Shown: positions 56,915 to 60,645 of the stretch, one piece after another | Position numbering within the stretch: position 1 is the first letter of the stretch | Layout of the letters: every line of letters starts with the position of its first letter | Assembly (NCBI GenBank): GCA_964291285.2 | Contig: OZ219786.1 | Coordinates: 1,088,001 to 1,152,000 of the forward strand | Reading direction: 5' to 3' | Length of the DNA stretch: 64,000 nt | Source of the DNA: Alphaproteobacteria bacterium | GTDB lineage: Bacteria; Pseudomonadota; Alphaproteobacteria; Bin95 | The notes under the pieces: model-generated | Databases searched by the model: none | What the model was told of the DNA's origin: nothing | What the model saw: only the letters and a program-made list of their open reading frames with translations | Position numbers and translations under genes: made by a program

Positions 56915-57192
56915 CGTGTCATGGAATGTCATGTTTTGTCATGTTCCGGGGGCGGAATGTCATGTTCTGTCACGGTCCGGTCTGCGCTCCGGTCGCCTGG
57001 GTTGCTTCGGATCGTTCGTTCCCGGGGCATCTCGGCCTCCTTTCCGTTGCCGGTTTCCACCGCCGGTTCGTCCCTTGCGGCGGGACCCTAGTTTCGCGCG
57101 TATCGCGCCCGCCTGTCCGCGCGCGTCGCCGCCGGCGCGGTTCGCGCGCCTGATTGCGCCCGTGCGCGCGACGCGGGCGCACAGGCGCACCT
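56915..57192 (-). repeat. CATGACA-terminated element, copy D (left part; continues at 60470)
   Basis: Same 27-nt TGTCATG triple as copy A; mini-ORF 56929-57030 (33 aa, ends HDKT) with AGGAGG; leader motifs. Confidence 0.8.
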
Positions 57193-57357
57193 TGTATCTC
57201 TCCGGATCGTTGTTGCAGCTATAGTCGCAACAGCGGGAGCGGACGGGAGACCGCTAGCCCGACTTCCGCAACTCGGCTTGAGAATCGACTGATTTGACGG
57301 TTTTCCGGCGCGAGAAGTGTCGGATTTCGGTGCAGTACCTCTCGGGACCGGCTTGTA

Positions 57358-59157
57358 GTGCCGACCTACCCCCTTGATCGGGCTGGCGAAGATCCGGACG
57401 CTGCGCTGATGTTCGTGCGCTGCAAGAGACGCTTCAAGGACGGCAAGGAGCACCGCTACTGGAGCGTTGTGGAGAACGTCCGGGTCCACGGCGGTCGGGT
57501 TGTTCAGCGTCAGGTGCTCTATCTCGGGGAGATCAACGACAGCCAGCGAGCGGCGTGGTGCCGCTCGATCGAGGTGGTGGAGGGCAAGTCGCGATCACGG
57601 CAGATGGCGCTGTTTCCCGAGGACCGGGAGGCGCCGGCGCTGACTTGCGAAGTGGTGAAGATCGACCTCTCGCAGGTGGCGCTTCACGACCCGCGCCAGT
57701 GGGGGGCGTGCTGGCTGGCGCTGTCCTTGTGGGACCGCCTGGACCTGGACCGCTTCTGGGAAGAGCGGCTGCCGGCGAGCCGGCAAGGCACGCGGTGGCT
57801 GGACATCCTGAAGATCCAGGTCTGCTACCGGCTGATCGACCCGGGCAGCGAGTGGCGCCTTCACCGTCACTGGTATGAGCACAGCGCGCTTCGCGATCTT
57901 CTGGGTGGCGAGCGGGCGATCGCCGACGACACACTCTATCGCTGTCTCGACAAGCTGCTGGCGCACAAGCAGGGCTTCTTCTCGTTTCTGCGCGACCGCT
58001 GGGCGACGCTGTTCGAGGCGCGCTTCGACGTGCTGCTCTACGACCTGACCTCGACCTACTTCGAGAGCGATCCGCCGTTCGATGACAAGCGCCGCTTCGG
58101 CTACAGCCGGGACAAGCGGCCCGACTGCGTGCAGGTGGTGATCGCCCTGATCGTTACGCCGCAGGGCTTTCCGCTGGCCTATGAGGTGATGCCGGGCAAC
58201 ACCTCCGACGACACCACGCTGGCGGCGTTCCTCAAGAAGATCGAGGATCAGTATGGCCGCTCCGAGCGGGTGTGGATCATGGACCGCGGCATCCCCACCG
58301 AGGAGACGCTGGCCGCGATGCGCGAGGGCGAGGCGCCGGTGCGCTACCTGGTGGGCACGCCCAAGGGCCGGCTGACGCGGCTCGAGAAGGTGTTCCTGGG
58401 CCTGCCCTGGCAGGAGGTGCGCCAGTCCGTGACTGTCAAGCTTCTGGTCGAGGATGGCGAGCTCTACGTCCTGGTGCGCAGCGAGGGGCGGCAGGTGAAG
58501 GAACGCGGCATGCGCCGGCGCCGGCTGAAGAGGCTGTGGCGTCGATTGGCCGAGTTGCAAGGGCAGTCGAACAGCCGGGATCAGTTGTTGCTCAAGCTCG
58601 GCGCCGCCAGGAAGGAGGCCGGCCGGGCCTGGAGCCTGGTCGACATCACCGTGCCCGGGACCGACAGCGAACTCGCCGCCAACGGCTTCTCATTCCGCCT
58701 GCAGCGCGACCGGCTGCGCCAGGTCCGCCGCCGCGAGGGCCGTTACCTGCTGCGATCCAACATGGTCGCCGAAGACCCCGCCACGCTGTGGCATCTGTAC
58801 ATGCAGCTCGTCGAGATCGAGCAGGCGTTCAAGGAACTCAAGCACGACCTCGCGATCCGCCCCATCTTCCATCAGCGCCAAGAGCGCATCGAGGCGCATA
58901 TCTTCGTCTCGTTCATCGCCTACTGCCTGCTGGTGACCCTGAAGAACCTCGCCCGGCCGCGCGCCCCGGGCCTCACCCCACGCGCCATCCTTGAGGCCTT
59001 CGCCACCATCCAGATGGTGGACGTCCATCTGCCAACCACCGACGGCCGGCACCTCGTCCTGCCGCGCCACACCCGGCCGAACAAGGAGCACGAGCTACTG
59101 CTGCAACAGCTCGGCATGACCTGGCCGCAGCAACCCGCACCCCGGATCTCCGCCTGA
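57358..59157 (+). CDS. IS1634-family DDE transposase
   Basis: Protein identical to 6748-8547. Confidence 0.9.
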   Translation: MPTYPLDRAGEDPDAALMFVRCKRRFKDGKEHRYWSVVENVRVHGGRVVQRQVLYLGEINDSQRAAWCRSIEVVEGKSRSRQMALFPEDREAPALTCEVVKIDLSQVALHDPRQWGACWLALSLWDRLDLDRFWEERLPASRQGTRWLDILKIQVCYRLIDPGSEWRLHRHWYEHSALRDLLGGERAIADDTLYRCLDKLLAHKQGFFSFLRDRWATLFEARFDVLLYDLTSTYFESDPPFDDKRRFGYSRDKRPDCVQVVIALIVTPQGFPLAYEVMPGNTSDDTTLAAFLKKIEDQYGRSERVWIMDRGIPTEETLAAMREGEAPVRYLVGTPKGRLTRLEKVFLGLPWQEVRQSVTVKLLVEDGELYVLVRSEGRQVKERGMRRRRLKRLWRRLAELQGQSNSRDQLLLKLGAARKEAGRAWSLVDITVPGTDSELAANGFSFRLQRDRLRQVRRREGRYLLRSNMVAEDPATLWHLYMQLVEIEQAFKELKHDLAIRPIFHQRQERIEAHIFVSFIAYCLLVTLKNLARPRAPGLTPRAILEAFATIQMVDVHLPTTDGRHLVLPRHTRPNKEHELLLQQLGMTWPQQPAPRISA

Positions 59158-59237
59158 CGGCACACGGCGCCGCCTCTCCGTTCGCCGCCTTGTAGTGCCG
59201 ACCCTCGGGGAGACGATCAAGGCTATTCAATGAGTTA

Positions 59238-59369
59238 TACCAACGGTCGTTGATTGGAACCTATAGCAGAGCCTCCCTCCGCAGCTCGCCCCCTGAGCCG
59301 AGGCCTCCTACTGCAAGAGGTAATCTCCGCCGAGAGAGGCTAATCGGTTCTTATCTGTGGCCGGTGGTA
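59238..59369. mobile_element. 132-bp MITE inside IS1634-like copy 2
   Basis: Absent from copy 1; imperfect 24-bp IR TACCA.CGG.C...GAT..GAACC; TTA duplicated (59235-59237, 59370-59372). Confidence 0.85.
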
Positions 59370-59519
59370 TTAGCATCCTCATGACCCCCGAGTTGCGGAA
59401 GTCGGGCTAGCACCCAGGTTATGAAGACCGCGGGAGAGCATGGTTCCCCGTCCGCTGTTCCTTTGAACCCGAACAGTCGCTTGGTCCGCAGTGTGAGACC
59501 GCATTTGCAAGGACGGGAC

Positions 59520-60452
59520 ATGGAACGGATATTCGTTGGCATCGACGTGGCGAAGGATCGTCTGGACGTGCATCTGCGCCCGTCCGGGGAGGCCTTTGCC
59601 GTCGCGCGCGACGGCAAAGGCCTGGAAGAGTTGTCGGCGCGCCTGGGCGGGCTGGAGGTTGCCCTCGTGGTGCTGGAGGCGACGGGCGGCTTCGAGGTCA
59701 CGGTCGCGGCGGCGCTCTGCGCGGCGGGCCTGCCATTGGCGGTGGTCAACCCGCGCCAGATCCGGGACTTCGCCCGCGCCACCGGCCGGCTCGCCAAGAC
59801 CGACGCCCTCGATGCGGCGGCGATCGCACAGTTCGCCGAGGCGGTCCATCCCGAGCCCCGTCCGGTGCCTGACGAGCAGGCCCGCGCGCTCGCCGAGCTG
59901 GTCGCCCGGCGGCGCCAGATCGTCGCGATGATGACCGCGGAGAGAAACCGCAGGAGGCGCCTCACAAGCCGTCGCACGATCCGCAGCGTCGACCGCGTGC
60001 TCGCCACCCTGCAACGCGAACTCTCCGACCTCGAAACCGAGCTCGGCGATGCGATCCGCAAATCCCCCGCATGGCGCCAGGCCGAGGACCTCCTCAAAAG
60101 CGTTCCCGGGGTCGGTGACGCCACCGCACGAACCCTGATCGCCGATCTCCCCGAACTCGGAACCCTCAGCCGAAGGCGCATCGCCGCGCTCGTCGGCGTC
60201 GCGCCCTTCAACCGCGACAGCGGAACCATGCGCGGAAAGAGAACCATATGGGGAGGACGCGCCAACGTCCGCGCAACCCTCTACATGGCTGCCCTCACCG
60301 CCTCCAGGCATAACCCAACCCTCAAACGCTTCTATCGCCACCTGATCGCGGAGGGAAAAACCAAAAAGGCTGCCCTCACCGCCGTCACACGAAAGCTCCT
60401 CACAATCCTCAACGCTATCCTCAGAGACCGAACCCCGTGGAAAACAGCTTGA
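59520..60452 (+). CDS. IS110-family DEDD recombinase
   Basis: GIDVAK, LEATGG, KTDALDA, RDSG catalytic serine, GGRANVR. Confidence 0.92.
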
Positions 60453-60469
60453 CCGACAACACAGTCGCT

Positions 60470-60645
60470 CTCCTGTCCGCTCTCGCCGGGGGTTTTGCGG
60501 CCCCCCAGCCATGCTTCCCTGCGCAGAAAAGCGGAAAGGCGGCCCCGGGAGCCGCCTTTCTCTCATGCCTATTCTACACCATTTCGCTGAAAGTCAAGCT
60601 CATGAGGGAACAAAAGATGGAAATATCGGGTGATTTTCTTACAAC
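60470..60645 (-). repeat. CATGACA-terminated element, copy D (right part with promoter-like box)
   Basis: TTGACT-N15-TAGAAT-AGG on minus strand (60568-60597); right boundary approximate. Confidence 0.7.

Follow-up and report, generated by a model that had tools for sequence, protein, structure and literature searches.

The question raised by positions 57191–60469 of the window, by which we mean the whole 64,000-nucleotide stretch of alphaproteobacterial DNA analysed here (contig OZ219786.1), is what directs the recombinase of a mobile element found there. The locus consists of two nested insertion sequences (ISs), an IS110-family element outside and an IS1634-family element inside, and the first-pass annotation had read it as a bridge-RNA system of the IS621 type, with guides legible against its own donor and target. 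Judged from sequence, the answer that we favour, with a probability of about 0.88, is that this is an IS110-group element working like IS621, and that the RNA gene of this particular copy was broken by the IS1634-family insertion. The observations that carry this answer are the anatomy of the element, the family of its protein, its 13 insertion sites, an empty site, and the covariation of stems and guides among relatives. The IS621-type logic proposed at first stands on the same grounds, with qualifications, the first being that the window copy is defective in cis, its RNA gene being split within the left target guide.

Genomic copies define the ends and the core of the target

The host genome (6.1 Mb in five contigs, 68% G+C) carries 13 copies of the IS110 element at 100% identity, nine of which are uninterrupted and identical from the first CT through the last GTCG, a length of 1124 bp. 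Counting both CT cores, the element measures 1126 bp (3.28 kb as the composite with the inner IS). The non-coding left end is long, with 176 nt up to the ATG, the right end is short, with 15 nt after the stop codon, and there are no long terminal inverted repeats. Every sequence statement that the first-pass annotation made at specified positions holds, and removing the insert, as it had proposed, rebuilds exactly the left end of the nine uninterrupted copies. Because these copies hold an uninterrupted left end, the RNA analysis below used a natural intact copy (L004:1433–1608), and no spliced sequence was constructed. The flanks, ends and gene of the window copy are placed as follows.

57184–57190, plus strand: left target half GGCGCAC of the insertion site, from flank comparison
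57191–57192, plus strand: core dinucleotide CT of the left junction (CT precedes TGTAT in 12/12 left ends)
57193–57257, plus strand: first part of the IS110 left end, element positions 3–67
57193–57197, plus strand: right donor half TGTAT
59520–60452, plus strand: IS110-family DEDD/serine recombinase gene, 310 aa, intact
60461–60469, plus strand: right end, comprising the left donor half ACAGTCG and the core CT
60470–60476, plus strand: right target half CTCCTGT

All 12 recoverable left junctions read ...CCT|TGTATCTC, the flank ending in CACCT in ten of them, and all 13 right junctions read ...ACAGTCG|CTCTCC. Every copy has the ends TGTAT... and ...ACAGTCG with CT on both sides (12/12 left, 13/13 right). 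An unoccupied paralogue of the window site lies near position 2018659 of contig C3; its right flank is identical to that of the window copy, and it reads GCGCAC-CT-CTCCTGTCCGCTCTCGCC... (also given as GCGCAC-CT-CTCCTGTCCGC...) with a single CT. Since CT is single in the empty site and stands at both junctions of the occupied ones, the element lies between a pair of CT cores, in the manner of IS621. Unoccupied sites that fit the strict motif RCAC-CT-CTCCYGY number five. The window copy itself is flanked by GGCGCAC-CT on the left (57184–57192) and CT-CTCCTGT on the right (60468–60476). The comparison of flanks of other copies, named beforehand as a check, agrees with the predicted target.

A search of a plasmid collection returned no near-identical match, and among the contigs of four sequencing runs none has the window locus empty. 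In contigs of runs X1–X3, 57252 is joined to 59406 and 2153 nt are skipped, giving the form of an intact left end; this joint lends no independent support, because the sibling copies would yield the same one. A contig of run X4 that joins 57159 to 60513 was set aside, one side of the joint being just 20 nt.

The recombinase belongs to the RNA-guided IS110 family

The protein matches both Pfam domains of the family, DEDD_Tnp_IS110 (PF01548; E = 3.4e-24, residues 6–147) and Transposase_20 (PF02371; E = 4.2e-20, residues 190–273), and the NCBIfam model NF033542, 'IS110 family RNA-guided transposase', with 222.9 bits against a cut-off of 140. By these matches it is an IS110-family recombinase with an N-terminal DEDD RuvC-like domain and a C-terminal Tnp domain. 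Using phmmer, we found it to match the solved structures of IS621 (8wt6; E = 1.5e-38, residues 4–307) and ISCro4 (9t56; E = 2e-38, residues 3–307). Specifically, residues D9, E53, D95, D98 and S234 align opposite the catalytic residues of IS621 (8wt6_A), whose composite active site is D11, E60, D102, D105 and S241 (PMC11208158), the chain numbering of 8wt6 being read as offset by +2 from that of the paper. RNA guidance of IS621 has been shown experimentally (PMC11208160, PMC11208158). The label 'programmable recombinase', applied to the present protein, would hold by homology.

The left end has the layout of a bridge RNA

For the intact left end, the computed fold (−71.2 kcal/mol, z = −2.7) consists of a 5' hairpin, a large loop enclosed by the long stem AGCGGACGGG/CCCGUCCGCU, and a third stem-loop, so that the predicted 5' hairpin and target stem reappear in the natural copy. 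By sequence and fold the layout is that of IS621, namely 5' hairpin, target loop and donor loop. The strands of the stem are also found in the window copy, where AGCGGACGGG (57238–57247) is complementary to CCCGTCCGCT (59447–59456) across the insert. The parts are listed below, in window coordinates where these are given.

57195–57200, plus strand: −10-like TATCTC
57207–57236, plus strand: 5' hairpin of the bridge RNA
57238–57247 and 57249–57252, plus strand: closing stem of the target loop, 5' strand
Element positions to 63: stem and linker with a conserved final G, before the left target guide
59407–59415, plus strand: left target guide CUAGCACCC, 9 nt, element positions 64–72
Element position 73: 1-nt linker after the left target guide
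59417–59429, plus strand: inner stem-loop of the target loop, GGUU AUGAA GACC, element positions 74–86
Element positions 87–88: linker with an invariant first G
59432–59438, plus strand: right target guide GGGAGAG, element positions 89–95, complementary to CT-CTCCY
59439–59440, plus strand: handshake guide CA of the target loop, element positions 96–97, read against the positions in PMC11208158
59442–59456, plus strand: closing stem of the target loop, 3' strand, GGUU then CCCGUCCGCU
59468–59517, plus strand: donor-binding loop
59468–59470 with 59515–59517, plus strand: outer stem CCC/GGG of the donor loop
59473–59481, plus strand: left donor guide ACAGUCGCU, element positions 130–138
59482–59501, plus strand: inner stem-loop of the donor loop
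59503–59511, plus strand: right donor guide AUUUGCAAG, element positions 160–168
59512–59513, plus strand: handshake guide GA of the donor loop
60449–60454, plus strand: TTGACC, −35 half of a putative circle-junction promoter, overlapping the stop codon

We collected 80 loci that encode relatives with 60–93% identity and aligned 42 distinct left ends with MAFFT. The structure named above is paired in 79.4% of alignment cells, a figure that drops to 51% or less once the partners are slid, and its covariation score was reached by none of 500 shuffles. The closing stem of the target loop is paired in 85.9% of cells and shows changes on both sides in 12 of its 14 pairs. Within the target loop, two G-C pairs of the inner stem-loop are retained in 42 and 40 of the 42 sequences, and the element bases A94, G95 and C96 are invariant; one pair of the donor inner stem is G-C in 25 sequences, U-A in 16 and A-U in one.

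The best Rfam match, of the opposite strand to the family sX15, scored 28.1 bits, below the gathering score of 55, and was treated as chance. The type locus of sX15, on pXCV183, adjoins the transposase gene of an IS3-family, not an IS110, element.

The donor loop matches both ends of the element

The donor-loop segment ACAGTCGCT (59473–59481) equals the right end (60461–60469) at 9/9 positions, as the first-pass annotation had noticed; 0.0006 such 9-mers would be expected by chance in 176 nt. The relatives show the same identity: the 7-nt left donor guide of the loop recurs 700–1400 nt downstream in 72 of 76 aligned rows, followed by CT in 72/72. Three versions of this guide covary with the right ends (ACAGTCG in 41 rows, ACGGTCG in 23 and ACAGCCG in eight).

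On the other side of the loop, TGCAAG (59506–59511) has the reverse complement CTTGCA, which differs from CTTGTA at the left end (57191–57196) by the single G-T wobble that had been allowed for. RNAalifold, unprompted, pairs the first five bases of the element with the right donor guide in 40–42 of the 42 sequences, and the pair at the wobble position is U-G in 37, U-A in three and C-G in two. Durrant et al. (PMC11208160) describe for IS621 a pattern of nine RNA bases on seven DNA bases, which AUUUGCAAG against CT-TGTAT fits. Two further traits of IS621, a non-canonical G-T pair and two U that are flipped out, recur with the right donor guide, as reconstructed from the residue description in PMC11208158.

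Handshake bases can be read in both loops. C at 59439 is able to pair with G7 of the donor half ACAGTCG, and G at 59512 with target C7, which is C in 12/12 sites; the relative L075 has A as its handshake base where its target position 7 is T. Pairing at this first position matches the description by Hiraizumi et al. (PMC11208158), and the second handshake base is non-complementary in both loops.

Across joined ends of a circle, TTGACC (60449–60454) would stand before TATCTC (57195–57200) with a spacer of 17 nt, the spacing given for the weak junction promoter proposed at first. Additionally, among the 72 rows with a right end, 70 show TTGAC at a distance of 12 nt ahead of the left donor half.

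The target loop matches the natural insertion sites

Both target-loop segments named in the first-pass annotation are present, GCACC at 59410–59414 and GGAGAG at 59433–59438, the latter with the reverse complement CTCTCC. The guides themselves needed revision: the right guide is longer, with 7 nt (GGGAGAG), and the left guide mismatches the T of the core. On the right, all 13 flanks begin with CTCTCC, and the next base is C in nine and T in four, both pairable with G. On the left, the register was set by relatives such as L073, in which guide UUUCUGUCU and flank TTTCTGTCT agree at 9/9 positions; in this register the matches over 12 flanks number 1, 0, 0, 8, 11, 11 and 12 at successive positions and 12/12 at the core C, so that about 5 nt pair (GCAC and the core C). 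Together, the two guides would specify approximately nnnGCAC-CT-CTCCY.

The relatives are the decisive evidence on the guides, since among them a change of loop goes together with a change of flank. The right guide of L043 predicts CT-TATCCGC, which is observed, and in a Reyranella group the predictions CT-CAGGG, CT-CAGGA and CT-CAGCA are each observed accordingly. When 42 distinct target loops are taken together, 214 of 294 non-core positions of the right guide agree with the flank of the same element, compared with 115.7 (sd 7.1) after shuffling, and the matching runs of the left guide sum to 195, compared with 113.2 (sd 6.7). For either guide, none of 2000 shuffles reached the observed value.

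The last base of the left guide (window 59415, left-end position 72) is not the U that would pair with the core T. Most relatives have ...CCU here, and a base other than U is also found in L030/L031 (C), L045 (C), L080 (A) and L087 (G). Pairing to both strands of the CT core is 'strongly preferred' in IS621 (PMC11208160). The 13 identical copies suggest that the mismatch is tolerated, and the element has evidently multiplied recently despite it.

Many of these target sites lie within a dispersed intergenic repeat. It covers window 57060–57192 and five of the 12 IS110 left flanks, with the IS110 target at its 3' end, and has the consensus ...GGCGGGACCCT(A/G)nTTTCGCGCGTATCGCGC...CGCGCGCCTGATTGCGCGCGCG...GGACRCAC-CT-CTCCYGTC. 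About 100 nt upstream in the repeat is a CCCTAG site (window 57086–57091), a type of site used by the IS1634 element in other places. Left of the repeat, at about window 56917–56972, the heptamer TGTCATG or near copies of it occur at least five times in some 55 nt; a similar cluster lies upstream of the paralogous locus C2:1294680.

A model for the intact element and the evidence against it

The model that we propose is as follows. The 176-nt left end would encode a bridge RNA of about 160 nt, and this RNA would guide a DEDD/serine recombinase. The donor-loop segment ACAGUCGC(U) would base-pair with the right end's bottom strand, being the same sequence, while AUUUGCAAG would pair discontiguously with the left end, on the top strand of CT-TGTAT and with a single G-T wobble. 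In the target loop, the 5' side would offer (CUA)GCACC and the 3' side GGGAGAG. On excision of a circle, TTGACC-N17-TATCTC would come together as a promoter for the RNA, and the circle would then be inserted by recombination at the CT core. For expression of the RNA, its binding by the protein, circle formation and the chemistry of recombination, the model would follow the work on IS621.

Several results weigh against this model. No circle or tandem junction occurs in the assembly, TATCTC fits the −10 consensus at just three of six positions, and a promoter scan of an integrated intact copy found no plus-strand promoter upstream of the left end, its sole match lying on the minus strand outside the IS110 element. 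Rfam 15 has no bridge-RNA family that matches the split or the intact left end, and no RNA run is listed with the sequence among those searched. The 5' hairpin is poorly aligned in the relatives, with 54% of cells paired. The left guide is weak, matching at four of seven non-core positions, and it ends in a C that faces the core T in 12/12 sites. The guide shuffles leave the phylogenetic relatedness among relatives in place. Finally, a single repeat family accounts for five of the 12 left flanks, and part of the site conservation is therefore shared ancestry of the targets.

Alternatively, the left end might be only a 5' leader or a terminal recombination site, its matches due to chance or to ordinary terminal repeats, and the protein would pick the site. 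The missing RNA runs and Rfam family, the repeat shared by five left flanks, and the shortness of the target-guide matches of a single element (5 and 6–7 nt) would all suit this explanation. It does not account for guides that covary with flanks over the 42 target loops beyond all 2000 shuffles, for three donor variants that follow their right ends exactly in 72 of 76 rows, or for compensatory changes in the loop-closing stem, and the protein is a close structural-family relative of one whose RNA guidance was shown by experiment. We consider it scarcely credible.

A less drastic alternative keeps RNA guidance and assigns the choice of site mainly to a second layer, either the structure or sequence of the repeat or its recognition by the protein, with the weak left guide in a minor part. 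The restriction of left pairing to GCAC and C, the constant core mismatch and the repeat ...CGCGCGCCTGATTGCGCGCGCG...GGACRCAC-CT in five left flanks are what this explanation would lead one to see, as is conservation beyond the guide, right position 8 being G in 10 of 13 flanks. A requirement for a dual match of sequence and structure is reported for ISPpu10, another IS110 element, in a 2026 preprint (10.64898/2026.03.19.712850). Nevertheless, the seven left flanks outside the repeat still end in (A/C)CCT, with CT-CTCC on the right, and covariation of the left guide is significant across the relatives. A second layer as the main determinant is unlikely in our judgement, and we retain guidance by the two target guides as the preferred reading.

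An IS1634-family insertion splits the RNA gene of the window copy

The insert was correctly called IS1634-like at first. Its transposase contains PF01609 and matches the NCBIfam IS1634-family model NF033559 with 305.2 bits against a cut-off of 100; a provisional 'IS5-like' label, taken from the NTAN duplications, was dropped in favour of this assignment.

57254–57257, no strand: CTAG target-site duplication, left copy
57258–59406, plus strand: IS1634-family insertion, 2149-bp variant, with inverted repeats CCCGACTTCCGCAACTC / GAGTTGCGGAAGTCGGG
57358–59157, plus strand: IS1634-family DDE transposase open reading frame, 599 aa (PF01609, NF033559)
59237–59370, no strand: 134-bp dispersed repeat within the IS1634 copy, from genomic matches to insert positions 1979–2112

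The insert has 17-nt terminal inverted repeats and a duplicated CTAG at both sides. The genome holds 49 paired copies of this element, mostly with 4-bp NTAN duplications; published target duplications of IS1634 are longer and more variable. The common size is found in 40 of the 49 (2012 bp; 2014 bp with constant end bases) and the larger size of 2149 bp in two, the long variant being carried by just three of the 49. The 134-bp repeat is what makes the present copy this rare long variant, and contigs join 59234 to 59370. The repeat has about 30 separate genomic matches with 87–100% identity and may be a miniature mobile element.

CTAG at element positions 64–67 is the only CTAG, and the only YTAR, in the IS110 element. 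The insertion point is the start of the left target guide, which opens with the right copy of the duplicated CTAG as its first four bases; the IS1634-family element landed in the sole CTAG, within that guide. A distance of 2.15 kb now separates the 5' hairpin and the closing stem's 5' strand from the remaining RNA, and for this reason the window copy should be unable to make a working bridge RNA in cis. It retains an intact recombinase gene, intact ends and intact guides downstream, and with gene and ends in this state the copy could move only with RNA supplied in trans by a sibling. The nine intact siblings would encode the intact bridge RNA, and the bridge RNA of IS621 works in trans (PMC11208160).

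Could the window copy nonetheless be autonomous, either by expressing the 3' two-thirds of the RNA from an outward IS1634 promoter or by reassociation of the two halves? Both target guides and the whole donor loop are contiguous downstream of the insert (59407–59517), and the separation affects just two parts, the 5' hairpin and the closing stem's 5' strand. That stem of 10+4 bp, however, shows the strongest covariation in the RNA and cannot form in cis, and the junction promoter would sit 2.2 kb upstream. We regard autonomy as highly improbable and keep to a copy that is defective in cis. It follows from its broken RNA gene that the window copy is the wrong one to clone.

The four program-called open reading frames that adjoin the IS110 element match no Pfam family.

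Other interrupted copies and the spread of the composite

Interruptions affect four of the 13 IS110 copies, and all of them fall in the target-binding loop within a 31-nt span, left-end positions 46 to 77: the window copy (57254–57257), C3:1141030 (minus strand), C3:1708047 and C2:1294680 (minus strand). The interrupters are of the IS1634 family twice, of the IS256 family with a 9-bp duplication, and a 3.5-kb composite with a 5-bp duplication that includes an IS1595-family element. For three independent points within 31 of 1124 nt, the chance calculated post hoc is about 0.002. The left end has 56–59% G+C compared with 70–76% in the gene, and the clustering is partly explained by this composition and by the presence there of the only CTAG of the element. 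The IS load of the genome is heavy, with the 49 paired IS1634-family copies, 23 near-full-length copies of a 1451-bp IS256-family element, the 13 IS110 copies and several copies of a 2.5-kb element, and nesting is frequent.

The locus at C2:1294600–1300100 (L111) holds a second IS110 copy with the same 2149-bp IS1634 variant in the same CTAG. The two inserts show no differences, and the third copy of the variant (C5:263181) differs from both at the same two positions. The insert at L111 is itself split by a 1.9-kb element, the open reading frame of which matches the IS1182 family only below the curated cut-off. The right flank, CT-CTCCCGCC, is different from that of the window and a perfect match to the right guide. 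The L111 copy is without its first 63 nt, and its IS1634 element adjoins GGCGGGACCCTAA, which is the 5' part of the dispersed repeat in which many IS110 targets lie; the missing left part suggests a deletion between IS1634 copies.

From these features, one may tentatively propose that the RNA-dead composite of 3.28 kb was moved to a second site by the IS110 machinery with sibling RNA in trans, an idea that we hold to be possible yet somewhat doubtful. If true, it would be a natural case of non-autonomous, cargo-bearing bridge recombination. The composite may also have spread by gene conversion between IS110 copies or by a second hop of IS1634 into the sole CTAG, for which the chance per hop is about 0.3–1%. 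Mismatched duplications point to recombination between IS copies.

Comparison with known systems

The nearest known counterpart of the element is IS621 of E. coli (PDB 8wt6–8wt9), with which it has in common both Pfam domains and the five aligned catalytic residues, the sequences being substantially diverged in alignment. The left end of 176 nt corresponds to an RNA of 177 nt, the order of 5' stem-loop, target loop and donor loop is the same, and the core is CT in both. Likewise in both, the 5' guides have the sense of the top strand and the 3' guides are complementary to it. IS621 has a promoter split across the circle junction, for which TTGACC and TATCTC are a candidate counterpart here. 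The differences concern the target guides: the right guide has 7 nt here and 4 in IS621, whereas the left guide pairs over 5 nt here and 9 in IS621 and has C instead of U opposite the core T. The resulting targets are nnnGCAC-CT-CTCCY here and ATCAGGCCTAC for IS621. For guide design this is relevant in that targeting would proceed mostly via the 7-nt right guide, the left guide contributing about 5 nt with a mismatch at the core T. The protein is equally close to ISCro4 (PDB 9t56) as to IS621.

The expanded IS110 elements described in a preprint by Hu et al. 2026 (10.64898/2026.08.14.744561) likewise have foreign DNA between their ends and exceed the canonical size. There the additions leave the system working, whereas here the cargo IS destroys the bridge-RNA gene, and the composite contains no resistance or adaptive gene. 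The IS1111 group, with its seekRNA or 3'-end bridge RNA, shares the recombinase family and the RNA-guided logic (PMC11208160); the long left end of 176 nt and short right end of 15 nt place the present element in the IS110-group arrangement instead. Thousands of bridge RNAs were predicted by covariation in 2024 (PMC11208160), and this element or close relatives may already be among those predictions. The understanding of the field is unchanged by it. Together, its nine intact copies, 13 natural sites and one empty site map its specificity without experiment and add a well-documented natural orthologue to the bridge-recombinase family.

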